Counted from the first letter of the stretch, positions 7,019-58,258 are shown. The stretch: DNA of 64,000 nt from Eubacteriales bacterium (GCA_045535815.1 JAZSMJ010000006.1:5430-69429), one strand, 5' to 3'. Notes: generated from the letters alone by a model not told the origin. A program made the numbers and translations.

Positions 7019-7047
7019 AATATAATACAGTATAAAAAGAAAGGTGA

Positions 7048-10297
<3,250 letters not shown>

Positions 10298-13315: not shown

Positions 13316-14587
13316 TCAGAATAAGATTATCAAAAGCTGTGATACAAGTACTACCGATATAAGTGCTATCGGATACGTTGCTGCATAAGCAGCGGCAACG
13401 TCTTCGGTCTTTGCAACGCTGATAAGTGTACCGAGTGCAGGTGTTGAGGTCATTCCTCCTGTGATTGAGCCAAGGTTGTTGAGAAGGCTGAGCTTAAGAA
13501 CGTACTTAGCAAACAGGAATCCTATTAGCATCGGGAATATTGTCATTACAATACCATATACGAAGTACATAATATCAAAGTTAGCAACGAAGTCTGCGCC
13601 TCCGGGGATTCCGGCACCTACAAGGAAGAGCACAAGACCGAGCTCTCTGAAGAGCTTAAGTGTATGCTGATCGGGCATAATGCTGAGCTTACCGATGCGT
13701 CCGAAGTGACCAAGTATAAGTGCAACAAGAAGACATCCGCCGGTAGTCGTAAGCGAGAAGCAGGTTCCGCTAAGGCCTTGAGCTGAAAGCGGTATCTTGA
13801 TCTTGCCAACGAAAGTTCCGAGAACTGCCGCAAGAGCAAATACTGCAAATCCGTGTTCATCAAGCTTTAAAAGAGTGCCTGTAAAGGCGTTTTTCTTTTT
13901 GTCTGCTCCGTCATCCTTTAAAATAAGCTTTGATCTTTCAAGATCCATATCTGCTTTGGAAAGCTTAGGAATAAGCTGAACGAAGAGAACGACACCTATA
14001 ACTCCGAATATGTATGCAATTCCGTGACCTACGGACACAAGGCTTGTGAGCGAGGGGTCAACGGTTGCCTTTGCCGCAGAGAATGCAGGAGTTGAGGTAA
14101 GTGAACCCGAGAGCAGACCGACTATCATTGCTGTAAAGCCTTCGGATGTCTCTATGGATGAGCCGAAACCTATAGCTCTTCCGGTCATAATACAAGCAAC
14201 GGCAGAAAGTCCGCCGGCTACTATAATAACGAAGCCGAGAAGAACGTAGGATTTGAAGTTCTTCTTCATATTTCCGAAGAACTTGGGTCCTGCAATAAAA
14301 CCAACGGACGTAACGAAGAGTACAAGTCCGAGGTTTTCGATTATCTCAAGTGCCTGATTTAAGAAGTTTACCGATTCAGCCTCTCCCTTGATTATCATCT
14401 GTGATTCAAGAGGACCGATCAAAAGAGCACCGAAGAGAAGGGCAATAACGAATACGCCTGCATCCCCCAGAGATACGCCCTTAATGGTAATACGACCGAA
14501 TGCGTAACCGACAAAAAGTATGCCAAATACGCAGAATATTAAGAATGAAATACCTGTTACAGGGATAAAACCGCCAAATAAATTCAT
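13316..14587 (-). CDS. AspT/YidE/YbjL-family permease, candidate succinate exporter
   Basis: Duplicated GxxTSTPA motifs in two hydrophobic halves; last gene of the fumarate-reduction operon. Substrate is inferred from context. Confidence 0.8.
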   Translation of the reverse strand: MNLFGGFIPVTGISFLIFCVFGILFVGYAFGRITIKGVSLGDAGVFVIALLFGALLIGPLESQMIIKGEAESVNFLNQALEIIENLGLVLFVTSVGFIAGPKFFGNMKKNFKSYVLLGFVIIVAGGLSAVACIMTGRAIGFGSSIETSEGFTAMIVGLLSGSLTSTPAFSAAKATVDPSLTSLVSVGHGIAYIFGVIGVVLFVQLIPKLSKADMDLERSKLILKDDGADKKKNAFTGTLLKLDEHGFAVFALAAVLGTFVGKIKIPLSAQGLSGTCFSLTTTGGCLLVALILGHFGRIGKLSIMPDQHTLKLFRELGLVLFLVGAGIPGGADFVANFDIMYFVYGIVMTIFPMLIGFLFAKYVLKLSLLNNLGSITGGMTSTPALGTLISVAKTEDVAAAYAATYPIALISVVLVSQLLIILF

Positions 14588-48298: not shown

Positions 48299-49249
48299 TC
48301 AGATGTTAAGCTCTGCAAGCTTTGCATCTATCTTAGCCATTTCCTCATCTGTGAGGGACCAATCGAATGCAGCGCAGTTTTCCTTTGCTTCGTAAACGTT
48401 TCTGACTCCGCAAAGCGCTGTGCCGACGTAATCCTTCTGCGTGCTCCAGTTAAGAGCTATCTGTGCAAGCGGACGTCCGTTTTCAGCAGAGATTTCGTCA
48501 AGTGTCTTCAAAAGCTCCATGCACTTTGAGAACTTGGGTTCTTTATAAAAATCGTAGAACGTAAAGCGGAAATCAGCAGGATCCCAGTTGGGTATCTCGC
48601 GGATAGCACCGGTGAGAATTCCTGATCCGAGACTGCCGTATGTGAAGGATGAAATACCGTTTCCTGCACACCACTTCATAAGCTCTTTTTCGGTCTGATT
48701 TACCATAGAGTAAGGGGGCTGTATAACGTCGATCTCAGCGGTTTTTCTGCATTCTTCAATCATAGCCTGATCAAAGTTAGAAACACCGAGATATCTGATC
48801 TTGCCCTGCTTTTTAAGATCAAGCATTGCTCCCATGGTCTCTTCAAAAGGAGTGTTAGGATCAGGCCAGTGCACGAAATAAAAGTCAATATAATCAACGT
48901 CAAGTCTTTTGAGTGAATCATCGCACTCTTTAAAGCAGTTCTTTCTTGAACCGTCACGCGGAACCTCAGCATTTACACCCTGATCGAATCCGATACCAAA
49001 TTTTGTAGCTACATAAATCTTGTCTCTGGGCAATCCTTTAATAGCTCTGCCTACGATTTCCTCGGAGACACCGCTGTTATAGAACGGCGCAGTATCGATA
49101 AGGTTAACACCTTGATCGAACATATAGTGAATGGCGTCAATCGAATCCTTTTCGGTAACTTCACCGTATCTTGCTCCGCCTATAGCCCACGTTCCGACTG
49201 CAAGTGCGGAAACGTCAACTCCGGCATTTTGTAAATGTTTGTAACGCAT
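48299..49249 (-). CDS. Aldo/keto reductase
   Basis: GTW, IDTAPFY, ATKFG, SLKRL, HWPD and GVSNF motifs. Confidence 0.95.
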   Translation of the reverse strand: MRYKHLQNAGVDVSALAVGTWAIGGARYGEVTEKDSIDAIHYMFDQGVNLIDTAPFYNSGVSEEIVGRAIKGLPRDKIYVATKFGIGFDQGVNAEVPRDGSRKNCFKECDDSLKRLDVDYIDFYFVHWPDPNTPFEETMGAMLDLKKQGKIRYLGVSNFDQAMIEECRKTAEIDVIQPPYSMVNQTEKELMKWCAGNGISSFTYGSLGSGILTGAIREIPNWDPADFRFTFYDFYKEPKFSKCMELLKTLDEISAENGRPLAQIALNWSTQKDYVGTALCGVRNVYEAKENCAAFDWSLTDEEMAKIDAKLAELNI

Positions 49250-53955: not shown

Positions 53956-54042
53956 GCGGGTATGGCGGAATTGGCAGACGCGCTAGATTCAGGTTCTAGT
54001 GGGGGCAACTTCGTGAAGGTTCAAGTCCTTTTACCCGCACCA
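53956..54042 (+). tRNA. tRNA-Leu (CAG)
   Basis: GCGGGTA/TACCCGC acceptor stem, CTAGA-TTCAGGT-TCTAG anticodon arm, long variable arm, GGTTCAAGTCC T-arm and encoded CCA. Confidence 0.96.
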
Positions 54043-54044
54043 CT

Positions 54045-54085
54045 AAAAAAGTCACTTTTGTCTACCGACAAAGGTGACCTTTTTT
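54045..54085 (+). terminator. tRNA-Leu terminator with TTTGTC-TACC-GACAAA core
   Basis: AAAAAAGTCACTTTTGTC-TACC-GACAAAGGTGACCTTTTTT. Confidence 0.8.
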
Positions 54086-54086
54086 A

Positions 54087-54254
54087 ATGATATCCGTTCC
54101 TTGCGGAACGGGTGATATATCTTCGATATGATATCGCACTTCGTGCGATGATATATGCCTGCGGCATATGAATGAACGGATATTATATCATGCTTGCGTA
54201 GCAAGTATATCATGCGGAGATGCCGTATATCATATCGCGTCAGCGATATATCAT
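54087..54254. repeat. Mirror-symmetric hairpin array 1 (4x TGATAT+hairpin, then 4x TATATCA)
   Basis: TGATAT at 54088, 54113, 54129 and 54149; TATATCA at 54184, 54206, 54226 and 54247; short palindromes between them. Confidence 0.9.
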
Positions 54255-54282
54255 TGAAAAGCACAATAATTTATGATATAAT
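54254..54282 (+). promoter_or_regulatory. sigmaA promoter at the end of array 1
   Basis: TTGAAA-17 nt-TATAAT with an extended TG, 22 nt before the four-helix-bundle ATG. Confidence 0.75.
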
Positions 54283-54304
54283 TATCTTGAAAGAAGGTGC
54301 TATT

Positions 54305-54658
54305 ATGTCCGAAAACAAATTACTTGATCTATCTTTTGAATTTGCGGTTGCTATTGTTAATCTTGTGGATGGCATAACTGCACCCAAAAGTTCCTATATG
54401 ACCGATCAGCTCGCAAGAGCAGGTACATCGGTTGGTGCCAATATTCACGAAGCGCAGTATGCACAGAGCAAGAAAGACTTTGTTGCGAAGTTGGAAATCG
54501 CTTTGAAAGAATCCAACGAAACAAGTTATTGGTTGAAATTGATGTACGAAACCAAAAGAAGCGATATCGCTACATATCAATACACAGAGAAGCTTTGTGG
54601 TAATATCCGCAGGCTTTTGATCGCTTCTTGCAGAACCGCGAAGGAGAATTCGAAATGA
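54305..54658 (+). CDS. Four-helix bundle protein (23S rRNA IVP / TIGR02436-like)
   Basis: DQLARAGTSVGANIHEA...SKKDF..KLEIALKESNETSYWL signature; GAAGGTG RBS. Confidence 0.9.
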   Translation: MSENKLLDLSFEFAVAIVNLVDGITAPKSSYMTDQLARAGTSVGANIHEAQYAQSKKDFVAKLEIALKESNETSYWLKLMYETKRSDIATYQYTEKLCGNIRRLLIASCRTAKENSK

Positions 54659-55269
54659 ATAAAATTATTTGGGATATTTCTGACTATATTTTTGTTTCCG
54701 ATGAACCTAAAAAGGTTGATGCAATCTTTCTGCCGGGAGGGTCGCATCCTGAACAACCTGAATATGCGGCTAAACTGTACCATAAAGGTTATGCTAAGTG
54801 GATTATTCCCTCTGGTGGAGTTAGTGTTAAACGAGATAAATGGCCAGGTGTTCGCTCAAAGGCCGAGATATATAATGGTGATTATCAATCCGACTGCGAG
54901 TTTTTTATCGATGTGTTTGTAAAAAACGGTGTGCCTATAGATGCAATTATTGGAGAAGATAAATCAGGACATACTCGTGATAATGCTTTTCTTTCACGAA
55001 AAGTCGTTGACGAAAGTGGCGTTGAGATAAAAACGGCAATGATTGTCTGTAAAGCGTTTCACGCCAGACGTTGCCTTATGCTTTATCAAATGGCTTTTCC
55101 CGATGTTGAGATAAAGGTATGTCCAGTTCATTGCTTCAATATAACAAAGGATAATTGGTATATGACCGAGCTAGGAACAGACCGTGTTCTTGGCGAACTC
55201 GCCCGGTGTGGCAATCAGTTTGTTGGTGACATGAAGTCATATTTATCATATATTAAGAACAACCAGTAA
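54655..55269 (+). CDS. YdcF/DUF218 family protein
   Basis: DAIFLPG, IIPSGG, EDKSGHTRDNA and KAFHARR motifs; ATGA overlap with the upstream gene. Confidence 0.85.
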   Translation: MNKIIWDISDYIFVSDEPKKVDAIFLPGGSHPEQPEYAAKLYHKGYAKWIIPSGGVSVKRDKWPGVRSKAEIYNGDYQSDCEFFIDVFVKNGVPIDAIIGEDKSGHTRDNAFLSRKVVDESGVEIKTAMIVCKAFHARRCLMLYQMAFPDVEIKVCPVHCFNITKDNWYMTELGTDRVLGELARCGNQFVGDMKSYLSYIKNNQ

Positions 55270-55404
55270 GATAATAGAATGCGTCAAATTTTACTTTGAC
55301 ACAAAAAGAATATTCACATTACTTTTGGTCTTTCTTACCCATGTTTATATACTTTTAGTCGCTCTTTCAATGTTTTGTCCTATATTAACTCTGGAGGTAA
55401 TGGT

Positions 55405-56451
55405 ATGAAATATATTTCGGTTGACGGTGAGGATATAGTCTGGTATGACGTGAAGAAATCTCCGTTTGTGCTTCACGGATTTTACAATCCGTTATCGGAG
55501 CCGTTTTTCAGAAGACTTCCGCAAGATGTTGCTGAGGCTACGAGCGCCGGTGTTGATACATTAAGCCGTGAATCTGCAGGCGGACGAGTAAGGTTTTCTA
55601 CAGATTCTCCGTATATTGCAATACGAGCAAAGTACAGATCGGTCGGACGAGCTCCGCATATAACGCTTGTATCCTCGGCAGGCTTTGATCTTTATGTTGA
55701 CGGCGAATTCGGAAGCAGATATATCAGAGAGTTCAGACCGCCTTACGATATCGTTGATACGTATTGTTCACTTGTGCATTTAAACGACAATAAATTAAGA
55801 TCATATACGATAAATTTCCCAACACATTCTGTTGTTGAAGCCCTTGAGGTGGGAATAAGACCCGGAGCGGTTCTTGATAAACCGGTGCAATACCGTGATT
55901 TATTACCGGTGATATTTTACGGTTCATCTATCGTACACGGAACTGCATCGACTCATCCGGGTGCAACCTATCCTGCAATTATATCGAGAGATCTGAATAT
56001 TGATTTTATTAATATGGGCTTTTCCGGAAATGCGATGGGTGAACAGGTCTTGGCAGAATGGCTGTCAGGGCGTCCGATGAGCGTTTTCGTTTGCGATTAC
56101 GACCATAATGCCCCTGATTTAGAGCATCTTGAAAAAACGCACTATTCGTTTTATCAGACGATGCGGAAAAACGCGCCCGACGTTCCTTATATTATGATCT
56201 CACGCCCGGATTATTGGACCGGAATTGATCAGGAGCATATCCTCGATCGGCGAGACGTAATAATGTCATCGTATCTTAAGGCACGATCAAACGGTGACAA
56301 AAATGTATATTTTATCGACGGTCTCAGCTTTTTTGCATCAGAGCATCAGTATGAAACGGTTGTTGACTGCACTCATCCAAACGATTTCGGTTTTGTAAGA
56401 ATGGCTGAAAAAATAGGTGCGGTTATCAAGCATATTCTTGAAAAGAAGTAA
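55405..56451 (+). CDS. SGNH/GDSL hydrolase family protein
   Basis: FYGSSI, NMGFSGNA, DYDHN and DCTHPND motifs. Confidence 0.88.
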   Translation: MKYISVDGEDIVWYDVKKSPFVLHGFYNPLSEPFFRRLPQDVAEATSAGVDTLSRESAGGRVRFSTDSPYIAIRAKYRSVGRAPHITLVSSAGFDLYVDGEFGSRYIREFRPPYDIVDTYCSLVHLNDNKLRSYTINFPTHSVVEALEVGIRPGAVLDKPVQYRDLLPVIFYGSSIVHGTASTHPGATYPAIISRDLNIDFINMGFSGNAMGEQVLAEWLSGRPMSVFVCDYDHNAPDLEHLEKTHYSFYQTMRKNAPDVPYIMISRPDYWTGIDQEHILDRRDVIMSSYLKARSNGDKNVYFIDGLSFFASEHQYETVVDCTHPNDFGFVRMAEKIGAVIKHILEKK

Positions 56452-56462
56452 AGGAGCTTTTT

Positions 56463-57248
56463 ATGGACAGAAAGCTTATTGATCTTTCTTTCGAAGATTT
56501 TCCAATGCAGCTTCACAGCTTTGTGAAAGATGCAAAAATTTATGATAGCAGTTGTTCAGAGCTTGCGAGAGTTTATTACATAGACAAGGGTAGCGGATAT
56601 TATCTGAAAAGATCGCCTAAAGAAAGTCTTAAAAGTGAAGCTCATATGACCGGATATTTTGCCTTTAAAGGATTATCCTGTAACGTCATTGAATATCTTT
56701 CTGAAGAATACGATTGGATGCTTACAGAAAAAATATCAGGCGAGGATTGCACTTTTCAACAATATCTTGATAATCCCGAAAGATTATGTGATACTCTTGC
56801 AATTCTTCTGAGAAAGCTTCATGAAACCGAATACAAGGGCTGTCCTATAGAGGATCATACCAACCTCTACTTTAAAAGAGCAGAGGAGAACTATAGCAAC
56901 GGCATATTCGATTCATCGTTCATATCAGACGAGCTTGATTTTGCAAATGCAGACGATGCGTGGAGATTTGTTGAGACCTCAAAAGACGCATTAAAGAACG
57001 ATGCATTACTTCACGGTGATTATTGTCTTCCGAACGTAATTCTGGATAATTGGAATTTCAGCGGTTTCATTGATCTCGGTAACGGGGGAGTAGGCGATCC
57101 TCATGTAGACATTTTTTGGGCGATTTGGACGCTTGAATATAATCTGAAAACAGATAAGTATAAAGACAGATTTATAGATGCTTACGGTCGTTCTTCAGTA
57201 GATAAAGAAAAGCTAAAGCTTATTTCAGTTATAGAGGCATTCGGCTGA
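56463..57248 (+). CDS. Aminoglycoside 3'-phosphotransferase-like kinase
   Basis: YYLK, HGDYCLPN (Brenner motif), FIDLG and D...D; about 261 aa. Confidence 0.85.
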   Translation: MDRKLIDLSFEDFPMQLHSFVKDAKIYDSSCSELARVYYIDKGSGYYLKRSPKESLKSEAHMTGYFAFKGLSCNVIEYLSEEYDWMLTEKISGEDCTFQQYLDNPERLCDTLAILLRKLHETEYKGCPIEDHTNLYFKRAEENYSNGIFDSSFISDELDFANADDAWRFVETSKDALKNDALLHGDYCLPNVILDNWNFSGFIDLGNGGVGDPHVDIFWAIWTLEYNLKTDKYKDRFIDAYGRSSVDKEKLKLISVIEAFG

Positions 57249-57318
57249 TGATATGCCAAGCCTGCGGCTTGGATAAACAAAAAGAACATTTGTCTATCGA
57301 CAAATGTTCTTTTTGTTG
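57248..57318. repeat. Partial copy of the array-2/terminator unit (direct repeat of 58109-58183), also a bidirectional terminator
   Basis: ATGATATGCCAAGCCTGCGGCTTGGATAAACAAAAAGAACATTTGTC-TATC-GACAAATGTTCTTTTTGTTG. Confidence 0.9.
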
Positions 57319-57406
57319 TTGCCTAAGAACAACTAAACGGTTCGTAAATGTAGGAAAGAAAAGCGAAATGGTGCGTAACCGTACTGTTCAACAAATTGGA
57401 TTTTAC

Positions 57407-57883
57407 TTACTCAATTTCTGTGCGAATAGTAAATACATCAGGAAGATTAAAAATATCCTTTTTCAGGAATAGTGGATAAAAATACACCTCACCCAATCTT
57501 TCAAACTCCAACCATTCAAAAATGTGTGTGCGATGACCTTCGTTTGATGTAAACAGTTTGCCCCTTTCCAATAAATCTGTATTTGATATATCCATTAAGA
57601 AATAAATACATAGTTCGTGATAGCGAAGATTATCGACATCTTCAGTAAAAAATGCTTGATTGAGCCAAAGAGGACGGACAATCGTAGGCGTAATGCCTAA
57701 TTCTTCTTGCGCTTCTCTGATAACCGCATTTTCTGCTGTTTCACCTATGGCAACTCTCCCGCCGGGCAAATAGTAATACGGTGACCTCTCATCGTGCATT
57801 GCCAAGATTTTGCCGTCAGAAATCATCATAGCACACACTCTGTAATTAAATTTCTCATTGTCAATTTTGAAAGATATGTCCAT
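57407..57883 (-). CDS. NUDIX hydrolase
   Basis: LPGGRVAIGETAENAVIREAQEELG Nudix box. Confidence 0.93.
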   Translation of the reverse strand: MDISFKIDNEKFNYRVCAMMISDGKILAMHDERSPYYYLPGGRVAIGETAENAVIREAQEELGITPTIVRPLWLNQAFFTEDVDNLRYHELCIYFLMDISNTDLLERGKLFTSNEGHRTHIFEWLEFERLGEVYFYPLFLKKDIFNLPDVFTIRTEIE

Positions 57884-57924
57884 CCTTTAATTCTCTTGTC
57901 AAATTTTTATTTGTGCGTGAGTTT

Positions 57925-57953
57925 ATTATATCACACTTTTGCAAATACATCAA
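57925..57953 (-). promoter_or_regulatory. sigmaA promoter at the end of array 2, driving NUDIX
   Basis: Minus strand TTGATG-17 nt-TATAAT with an extended TG. Confidence 0.65.
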
Positions 57954-58135
57954 GGCGTAGCCTTGAATATCATCCGCAACTTGTTGCGGTATATCATCAA
58001 TGCGAAGCATTGTATATCATCAAGCCGCAGGAAGATGCACGCTGGCGCGTGATGAGATACAAGGGCGGCTTGTCGCCCTTGATGATATACGCCGCACTTC
58101 GTGCGTCAATGATATACCAAGCCTGCGGCTTGGAT
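57946..58135. repeat. Mirror-symmetric hairpin array 2 (hairpin+TATATCAT x3, then ATGATATA+hairpin x3)
   Basis: CAAGGC-GTA-GCCTTG, CCGCAAC-TT-GTTGCGG, CAATGC-GAA-GCATTG, CAAGGGCG..CGCCCTTG, CGCAC-TTC-GTGCG and CCAAGCC-TGC-GGCTTGG, joined by 8-nt linkers. Confidence 0.9.
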
Positions 58136-58136
58136 A

Positions 58137-58182
58137 AACAAAAACAGAACATTTGTCGGTAGACAAATGTTCTGTTTTTGTT
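58137..58182 (-). terminator. tRNA-Val terminator with TTTGTC-TACC-GACAAA core
   Basis: Minus strand AACAAAAACAGAACATTTGTC-TACC-GACAAATGTTCTGTTTTTGTT. Confidence 0.8.
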
Positions 58183-58258
58183 GGTGGGGACAACTGGAAT
58201 CGAACCAGTGACCTCATGCATGTCAAGCATGCACTCTAACCAGCTGAGCTATGCCCCC
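58182..58258 (-). tRNA. tRNA-Val (GAC)
   Basis: Minus strand GGGGGCATAGCTCAGCTGGTTAGAGTGCATGC-TTGACAT-GCATGAGGTCACTGGTTCGATTCCAGTTGTCCCCACCA. Confidence 0.96.

Follow-up and report, generated by a model that had tools for sequence, protein, structure and literature searches.

Hairpin arrays at tRNA gene ends of gut Clostridia: a candidate REP/BIME-like repeat family related to Gut-1 and associated with 23S_rRNA_IVP genes

Organization of the locus

The DNA considered here, hereafter the window, is a stretch of 64,000 nucleotides from an Eubacteriales bacterium (GCA_045535815.1 JAZSMJ010000006.1:5430-69429), located on contig C19 of a genome of 2.25 Mb, which is divided into 87 contigs, is 96.7% complete and carries 38 tRNA genes. 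Between positions 53956 and 58258, two convergent tRNA genes, tRNA-Leu(CAG) and tRNA-Val(GAC), are each followed by a bidirectional terminator, by an array of short hairpins separated by a recurrent linker and by an outward sigma-A promoter. One of these promoters precedes a gene of the 23S_rRNA_IVP family (hereafter IVP). The subject of this work is the module formed by these parts, its distribution in related genomes and its association with IVP genes. The features of the locus are the following.

53956-54042, + strand: tRNA-Leu(CAG), anchor of module 1 (ARAGORN; Rfam tRNA, 53.9 bits)
54045-54085, both strands: bidirectional intrinsic terminator 1, with A-tract, stem (54051-54078) and T-tract, apex TTTGTCTACCGACAAA (analysis of duplicated and inverted repeats)
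54085-54159, + strand: left half of array 1, three to four "sense" units of TGATAT linker and hairpin (RF01706, 62.2 bits)
54160-54186, + strand: centre of array 1, a fourth hairpin followed by a repeat of the 3' arm of hairpin 1, GAACGGATAT
54184-54254, - strand: right half of array 1, four "antisense" units of hairpin and TATATCAT (minus-strand Gut-1 match of 27 bits and sequence inspection)
54254-54282, + strand: promoter P1, TTGAAA-17-TATAAT with TG, the -35 box abutting the last linker
54305-54658, + strand: 23S_rRNA_IVP / Avd-like four-helix-bundle gene (PF05635, 80.5 bits; PDB 2RLD, E 3e-24)
54655-55269, + strand: DUF218 gene, its start overlapping the IVP stop (Pfam)
55405-56451, + strand: GxDLY+SGNH hydrolase gene (Pfam)
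56463-57248, + strand: APH-family kinase gene (Pfam)
57248-57317: solo tRNA-proximal end of a B-type module, first hairpin unit (57248-57275) and bidirectional terminator (57276-57317)
57407-57883, - strand: NUDIX gene, driven by P2 (PF00293, 53.3 bits)
57925-57953, - strand: promoter P2, TTGATG-17-TATAAT with TG
57948-58136, - strand: array 2, B-type (sequence inspection; alignment with eight paralogues of the same genome)
58137-58182: bidirectional terminator 2, apex as in terminator 1, perfect 21-nt arms
58182-58258, - strand: tRNA-Val(GAC), anchor of module 2 (ARAGORN; Rfam tRNA, 69.6 bits)

An earlier reading of the same DNA, made from the sequence alone (the sequence-only reading), had proposed that the same layout is present twice. 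Terminator, array and near-consensus promoter were indeed found again behind both tRNA genes by tRNA calls, inverted repeats and promoter fits (P1 agrees with the consensus at 11 of 12 positions, P2 at 10 of 12, both with the extended TG), and inspection of the sequence located the hairpins said to be shared at 54135 and 58093 and at 54157, 58121 and 57260. The partial third copy reported beside the NUDIX gene was also recovered, since 57248-57283 is 97% identical to 58109-58144. The arrays, however, run opposite ways as seen from their tRNAs. Outward from tRNA-Leu, array 1 has TGATAT units and then ATATCA units, whereas array 2 starts from tRNA-Val with the hairpin CCAAGCC/GGCTTGG and continues with ATATCA units, a centre bearing the complement of the first arm and, lastly, TGATAT units. 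The centre copy of array 1 could pair with 54087-54102 (a 16-nt inverted repeat, 88% complementary), an arrangement that recurs in relatives.

The linker ATGATATA is present in 15 copies in the window against 3.95 expected, a number reached in none of 100 shuffles, and 10 of the 15 fall within the two arrays. All three terminators of the window, called at 54047-54082, 57279-57314 and 58142-58177, consist of an A-tract, a stem and a T-tract with the common apex TTTGTC-TACC-GACAAA; the solo one has perfect 19-nt arms and, together with its hairpin unit, is common to the APH operon and the NUDIX gene. Genome-wide, 11 regular-expression matches to the apex word were obtained, four in modules (three on C19, one on C47) and seven in unrelated positions within genes.

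Relationship to Gut-1

The left half of array 1 matches the Rfam family Gut-1 (RF01706) on the + strand with 62.2 bits (E 4e-11), above the gathering score of 50, and the right half matches the same model on the minus strand with 27 bits (E 0.03). Array 2 gives no match to the model even at E<=10, and arrays with other linker types are missed as well. Weinberg et al. (2010; PMC2864571, Genome Biol 11:R31) rated Gut-1 'Y' as an RNA and considered a cis-regulatory or riboswitch function improbable; they added the remark 'Human gut only', and their main text states that it was 'found only in environmental sequences'. Three short hairpins, (G/A)UGA(A/U)AU linkers and the gut-metagenome habitat are common to Gut-1 and to the arrays described here. 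The family, by contrast, models one arm, filed as a stand-alone small RNA with no assigned function. At the loci examined here this arm is joined to a mirrored half, and terminator, centre repeat and promoter complete a module that has a tRNA as its anchor and an IVP gene as its partner. Gut-1 is one arm of this larger module, and the array family is in part already described. The sequence-only reading had presented the system as undescribed and had itself named a match to a described family as the contrary outcome; such a match is what the left half of array 1 gives, while array 2 lies outside the model.

Among the titles and abstracts listed by text searches, none connected Gut-1 or IVP genes with tRNAs, although the supplements of Weinberg et al. 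(2010) may describe such a context, and a search for TIGR02436 found no paper. The tie of Gut-1-type arrays to tRNA gene ends and to IVP genes is newly made here.

Anatomy and predicted fold of the module

The module has the same plan across genera. The CCA end of the tRNA is followed by the bidirectional terminator, often with an apex of the GTCTACC type, then by the first linker with hairpin 1 and by two to three more units; a centre in which the 3' arm of hairpin 1 is found again leads into three to five hairpins with the reverse-complement linker and, often, into a promoter with its -35 box directly against the last linker. Each unit is made of a linker of 6-8 nt and a G+C-rich hairpin of 4-8 bp; linkers recur about every 20-25 bp, in two inverted sets. 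At least eight linker words are in use (TGAAAT, TGATAT, TGATGT, TGAAGY, GTTATATT, GATTACAT, GAATTG and others), and the word differs from array to array, the far half always carrying its reverse complement. A screen of 133 tRNA-downstream segments for a repeated 6-mer with its complement flagged 81, in a few cases on account of A/T runs alone, and in 57 of the 81 the linker word comes first and the complement second. In 21 of 35 arrays, at least 8 of 9 positions of the centre are complementary to the beginning of hairpin 1, a level reached by 14% of trans controls; the property is found with several unrelated arm sequences.

In a set of 471 distinct units, 98% of the stem pairs are Watson-Crick (2613, with 19 G-T and 36 A-C), and compensatory changes between paralogues are found, for instance in CAATGCTTCGCATTG, CAACACTTCGTGTTG and CAAGGCTTCGCCTTG. 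Triloops predominate (304 of the 471), the closing pair is C-G in 408, and the loops are strongly asymmetric between the strands (TNC 182 versus GNA 8; TNNC 92 versus GNNA 1). Because of this asymmetry and of the C-G closure, the strand with ATATCA or ATTTCA has hairpins of the forms C-GNA-G and C-GNNA-G, which are unusually stable in DNA.

The predicted fold of a single strand is a ladder, in which left and right linkers are paired and the hairpins branch off. For array 1 the RNA fold is predicted at -68.3 kcal/mol (z -4.55) and the DNA folds of the two strands at -37.4 kcal/mol (z -4.9) and -34.8 kcal/mol (z -4.3); the single-strand RNA fold of array 2 is predicted at -79.3 kcal/mol (z -4.7).

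Two further structures were observed at the arrays. Four loci in different genomes (L031, L035, L051, L070) have a conserved stretch of about 70 nt (gagagttcgaagtcata...aaaatatcttttttgtagcccatagaca) with a terminator 3' of the arrays, part of it resembling a tRNA T-arm; an Rfam search of this stretch, and of the heptad palindromes described below, returned no family. At G000 C26:52000-52060 and C26:30605-30640 an insert (gggacccctac...) lies inside the first-hairpin loop of B-type arrays.

Distribution and association with tRNA genes

The Gut-1 model gives 27 matches in the window genome at E<=10, four of them above the cut-off and most in inverted pairs, which merge into 19 loci. Nine of the 19 fall in the 250-nt zones that flank tRNA genes on the 3' side and make up 0.36% of the genome (binomial P 8e-18); a conservative null, in which arrays are confined to an assumed 12% of intergenic DNA, gives P 1e-9. 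Inspection by eye places hairpin arrays at 11 of the 26 assessable ends of tRNA transcription units (28 clusters, two being cut by contig ends), and a palindrome of 7-nt repeats (heptad palindrome) at four further ones.

At E<=0.001 the Gut-1 model matches in 27 of 41 genomes across the order, and as many as 58 matches were counted in a single genome. In the relatives, 29 of the 79 best-scoring matches are located 3' of a tRNA at a distance of up to 300 nt, and of these 28 are on the tRNA strand and 25 at 32-45 nt from it, which is the length of the terminator. The enrichment behind tRNA genes that the sequence-only reading had predicted is therefore present both in the window genome and in its relatives. 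In a pattern scan of one genome per species, 56 of the 80 matches listed come from Clostridia, Eubacteriales, Oscillospiraceae, Acutalibacteraceae, Ruminococcaceae or similar metagenome-assembled genomes (MAGs), and a same-strand tRNA is found within 200 nt upstream in 17 of these 56 loci versus none of the 21 from other phyla, most of which have no hairpin spacers and look like chance matches. One locus in an Akkermansiaceae MAG (L232, ~7030-7130) is a convincing one-armed Gut-1-like array, with four GC-rich hairpins and TGAAAT linkers, located after a gene end.

Form and position of the arrays go together, since mirrored arrays are behind a tRNA in 11 of 15 cases and one-armed arrays behind the end of a same-strand open reading frame (ORF), its orientation taken from crude open frames, in 20 of 26. 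Arrays were often seen at contig ends (G000 C21:1-120, C28:1-150, C36:1-200, C26:51790-52119, and in many relatives), which suggests that array repeats break short-read MAG assemblies.

Copies, site occupancy and searches for mobility

The stretch from first linker to -10 box, P1 included, is about 93% identical between the arrays behind tRNA-Leu(CAG) on C19 and tRNA-Arg(CCG) on C18, while their flanks are unrelated and their terminators alike at the apex only. As the repeat ends at the -10 box, the outward promoter proposed in the sequence-only reading is supplied by the repeat itself. The left arm of the array is bounded by an inverted repeat of 13-16 nt; at the borders of the C19/C18 pair, the one pair compared, no target-site duplication was seen of the kind that, with terminal inverted repeats, marks miniature inverted-repeat transposable elements. 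Nine B-type copies of the window genome, array 2 among them, can be aligned over their whole length; tandem copies are present on C26, and a membrane-protein gene lies between two copies on C42. The solo unit and terminator of the window (57248-57317) belong with these repeated copies.

Occupancy of a given tRNA site turns over, as judged from its patchiness among 17 assessable orthologues of tRNA-Leu(CAG) in relatives: G008 has a full array and an IVP gene, G009 a heptad palindrome and an IVP gene, four have partial or doubtful remnants and 11 are empty, two of the latter with a tRNA 100% identical to that of the window. Duplicated tRNA 3'-end fragments were noticed directly before modules (G000 C60 ~69130-69170, L196, L180, L048, L177), some of them 170-480 nt past an intact tRNA; they are the expected footprint of other elements that integrate into a tRNA end.

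ORF typing confirmed that no integrase, transposase or cas gene lies between the two tRNAs, where the five ORFs are of the types 23S_rRNA_IVP, DUF218, GxDLY+SGNH, APH and NUDIX, and there is no recombinase ORF between or beside them. The Y1/HUH transposase profile PF01797, which matches in 6 of 14 control genomes, has no match in the 96.7%-complete window genome. This speaks against the partner that had been suggested, an enzyme of the HUH type or of the REP-associated tyrosine transposase (RAYT) type. Four tyrosine recombinase genes (PF00589) are located on C60, C77, C55 and C4, and none on C19; the one at C55:444-1010 lies directly beside tRNA-Ser(GCT), a classical integration site.

The NUDIX gene had been regarded as captured cargo. 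Homologues are present in 7 of 41 genomes, and the three closest ones examined (G013, 75% identity; G012, 50%; G027, 37%) have ordinary genes around them and neither array nor tRNA nearby; the recurrent neighbour of the arrays is the IVP gene, and the proposal of attC-like capture of single genes is not supported. In the phage collection only the IVP part matches (two records), and the plasmid collection gave no match to the arrays. Pattern scans of IMG/VR found hairpin spacers in seven matches (six loci, one of them a tandem coding repeat) among the first 120 stretches and in two identical ones among the first 118, and these low numbers indicate that the arrays are not typically viral.

Circles and empty-site reads had also been suggested as evidence. 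Public runs contain at most 42% of the sampled window words, and four of them (X1, X2, X3, X17) were compared at the level of contigs. Two joints in X1, 57254->58126 and 58183->57366, were considered as a candidate empty site and rejected, as they have the same depth and are read as one contig aligning to the other repeat copy. A third joint, 54261->55320, has sides of at most 35 letters and an X1 depth of 37.1, shared with a joint inside the array, and is read as a contig of another organism.

The IVP gene

The IVP gene of the window (PF05635, 80.5 bits, cut-off 33.8) encodes a protein whose nearest solved structure is 2RLD, the five-chain entry of an uncharacterised protein, and begins 263 nt downstream of tRNA-Leu, past a terminator. 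This position is the rule in the window genome. Each of the five PF05635 genes, on C19, C23, C24, C26 and C60, is the next gene after a tRNA, on its 3' side (Lys-TTT, Thr-GGT, Leu-CAG, Gln-CTG), or, on C60, after a tRNA 3' fragment, with a hairpin array or a heptad palindrome in between. In the relatives, a tRNA on the same strand lies no more than 900 nt upstream at 16 of 29 IVP loci, the usual distance being ~260-305 nt. Directly upstream of the 29 genes, a regular expression finds at least 17 arrays, and inspection by eye 22 arrays, six heptad palindromes and one unclear case. In the window and at most IVP loci the -35 box abuts the last linker.

Gut-1 and IVP are found together in 23 of the 41 genomes, Gut-1 only in four, IVP only in one and neither in 13, counts that come from genomes which are kin. 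On a tree of 33 IVP proteins, linker labels change 12 times compared with 21.6 in shuffles, none of 200 shuffles being as low, with most of the 'none' labels being failures of the automatic linker caller. Members of one IVP clade come from different genomes and families, and several clades can be represented in a single genome. That the tree tracks the linker word across such mixed clades suggests that array and IVP gene diversify as a unit.

A second structured region can take the place between tRNA terminator and IVP gene, namely a long palindrome of 7-nt repeats (TTCACT- or AATGCAG-type) that has no small hairpins. It was seen at G000 C23:24710-24860 and C24:13520-13680 and in the relatives L185, L188, L189, L190, L169 and L193. 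The IVPs adjoining it form a clade of their own, and two copies, both behind tRNA-Thr (G000 C42 ~13600-13860 and C54 ~48700-48960), have no IVP gene.

In the window, the IVP stop codon and the DUF218 start codon overlap (ATGA, 54655-54658), and for this reason the two genes are probably co-translated from P1. DUF218, GxDLY+SGNH and APH are ordinary downstream genes.

Discussion

The explanation that we favour, with a probability of roughly 0.6, is that the arrays are a family of structured extragenic repeat modules, or hairpin ladders, of gut Clostridia of the Oscillospirales type, similar to the repetitive extragenic palindromes (REP) and bacterial interspersed mosaic elements (BIME) and coupled to IVP genes. 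Such a module would be placed directly behind the terminator of a transcription unit and co-oriented with it, the mirrored form mostly behind tRNAs and the one-armed form behind protein genes. It would behave as a REP/BIME-like element, present in many copies, gained and lost site by site and with its hairpins kept by compensatory changes. The IVP gene would usually be the first one read from the outward sigma-A promoter, with IVP lineages that track the linker word. The module may act in single-stranded form, folded as a ladder whose rungs are linker-linker helices and whose branches are the hairpins, and the IVP protein would be its putative binding partner; the other genes between the tRNAs would then be ordinary neighbours that use the promoter, rather than captured cargo.

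The proposal of a non-autonomous REP/BIME-like repeat family in the sequence-only reading is supported. Like REP, BIME and REPIN elements of Enterobacteria and Pseudomonas, the arrays are extragenic palindromes after genes, of alternating orientation, multi-copy, variable among relatives and subject to compensatory change. In contrast to them, every palindrome is different here and the linker is constant, there is neither a single palindrome with a conserved 5' tetranucleotide nor a head of the GTAG type, no Y1/RAYT gene is present, and the module has its promoter and its ties to tRNA and IVP. IVP-encoding intervening sequences are found in the rRNA genes of Leptospira and Coxiella, and share with the present loci a sporadic occurrence and a PF05635 ORF by a strongly structured stretch at a stable-RNA gene. 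Instead of being inserted within an rRNA helix, the ORF described here lies outside the RNA gene, which is a tRNA, past the terminator and with a promoter to itself, and in place of one long stem there is a ladder of small hairpins. Avd of diversity-generating retroelements is a four-helix-bundle protein of the same kind as IVP, is pentameric and binds a structured RNA beside its own gene. Unlike in those elements, no reverse transcriptase adjoins any IVP gene of the window genome, whose single reverse-transcriptase ORF (RVT_1; C54:19760-20302, in an open frame of 315 aa) is located elsewhere.

Several observations weigh against the explanation that we favour. The loci of relatives were often located through Gut-1 or the linker pattern, which biases the counts from relatives toward that form, and the orientation of the ORFs preceding one-armed arrays comes from crude open frames. 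No target-site duplication is found at the borders of the C19/C18 pair, the one pair compared, and, no moving enzyme having been found either, gene conversion could explain the near-identical copies. A metagenome scan through the flanking MgtC gene gave no close relatives (61 loci, the best 59% identical), and a same-strand tRNA follows MgtC in none of the 22 loci examined, hence no synteny; no clean empty site or circle was obtained from the public runs. As to IVP, plain co-inheritance would produce the same co-variation with the linker, and two of the four array types of the window genome (with GTGATATT and TGAAGC linkers) have no IVP gene of matching clade there, so that IVP cannot be an obligatory partner.

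A more far-reaching form of the ladder explanation is that IVP/Avd-like proteins and their cognate ladders are an unrecognised protein-nucleic-acid unit, propagating or being maintained at the 3' flanks of stable-RNA genes, in which each IVP lineage reads its own linker word. We put this forward tentatively, as a possibility with the odds against it.

An alternative, unlikely in our opinion although the strongest of those considered, is that Gut-1 is a true non-coding RNA, in the form of genes or of 3' trailers, whose hairpins and UGAUAU/UGAAAU linkers act in trans or in cis. Possible roles of such an RNA include that of a protein sponge, of a block to 3' exonucleases or of a backup terminator for tRNA read-through. 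It is suggested by the Rfam match above cut-off and the RNA rating of Weinberg et al. (2010), by the U-G pair at the stem bases in the alignment of the Gut-1 model, by the sense arm being co-oriented with the upstream unit in tRNA-linked matches and one-armed arrays alike, and by the strand-asymmetric loops. On the other hand, an intrinsic terminator separates the tRNA from the array, and the only good promoters face away from the latter. Pairs that would be G-U in the sense strand are rare (19 of 2668) and fewer than the A-C pairs, which are G-U on the other strand; the difference, 3 versus 19 on 115 units and 19 versus 36 on 471 (P 0.03), is nevertheless too weak to name a strand. The predominance of triloops closed by C-G, a mirrored half that makes both strands alike, and a model that misses array 2 and the other linker types also argue against an RNA. 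RNA-library contigs, which by themselves do not show transcription, cover the arrays, relative to the tRNA, no more frequently than do those of DNA runs.

Less probable still is a function of the array as host regulatory double-stranded DNA, an operator or insulator between an active tRNA gene and the next promoter, with a protein, possibly IVP, bound at the phased linkers. The bound protein would set the activity of the abutting promoter or absorb supercoiling. The contact between -35 box and last linker, the regular linker spacing in two inverted sets, the nearly perfect Watson-Crick symmetry, which suits a constraint at the DNA level, and the co-variation of linker word and IVP clade would all fit this proposal. 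A duplex binding site, however, would have no need of spacers that vary freely and yet stay hairpins through compensatory changes, and at many arrays, such as those on C41 and C69, neither promoter nor gene follows; one-armed arrays are located at gene 3' ends.

A recombination platform of the attC/REP kind, at which a HUH nuclease or a tyrosine recombinase acting in trans would capture single genes at tRNA 3' ends, is very improbable: it could draw on the NUDIX gene bracketed by 57248-57317 and 58109-58182, on the C42 membrane-protein gene between two arrays, on the tandem arrays of C26, on the different genes that follow the same tRNA in different genera and on the C-GNA-G and C-GNNA-G hairpins, but PF01797 is absent, the four tyrosine recombinase genes are elsewhere, the NUDIX homologues examined have no arrays or tRNAs, the recurrent neighbour is one family and not varied cargo, the genes have upstream promoters instead of downstream recombination sites, and the skip 57254->58126 is one contig lying on the other repeat copy and then returning. 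Integron cassettes and attC sites do resemble the arrays in that structure is kept while sequence varies, in being thought to work as folded single strands and in repeats that bracket single genes. They differ in the presence of IntI, attI and Pc, none of which is found here, in the size of the units (57-141 bp, against 20 bp) and in the order of the parts, as cassette genes are promoterless and each followed by attC, whereas here array and promoter are upstream of the gene and the NUDIX "cargo" is not mobile with the array.

The hairpin-ladder explanation gives a testable context to two orphans. The first is Gut-1, recorded since 2009-2010 from gut metagenomes only. The second is 23S_rRNA_IVP, a widespread family with a solved structure, which is functionally uncharacterised, is scattered through cas loci and, according to the text of a preprint, is found in insertions of the 16S and 23S rRNA genes of CPR (candidate phyla radiation) bacteria (bioRxiv 10.1101/2024.02.27.582315). 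If the more far-reaching proposal holds, Gut-1 and the IVP family would have a common function, IVP-bearing rRNA intervening sequences would be the same phenomenon at another address, and DNA movement, or the handling of tRNA read-through, would take place without a known recombinase. If the pairing of IVP and ladder is specific, it would provide natural orthogonal pairs for protein/nucleic-acid recognition. The module of both orphans, which is present at about half of the tRNA gene ends of the window genome and again throughout an order of gut Clostridia that are abundant, gives strong promoters to adjoining genes and breaks MAG assemblies; both effects matter for annotation and for the reading of expression in these uncultured organisms.

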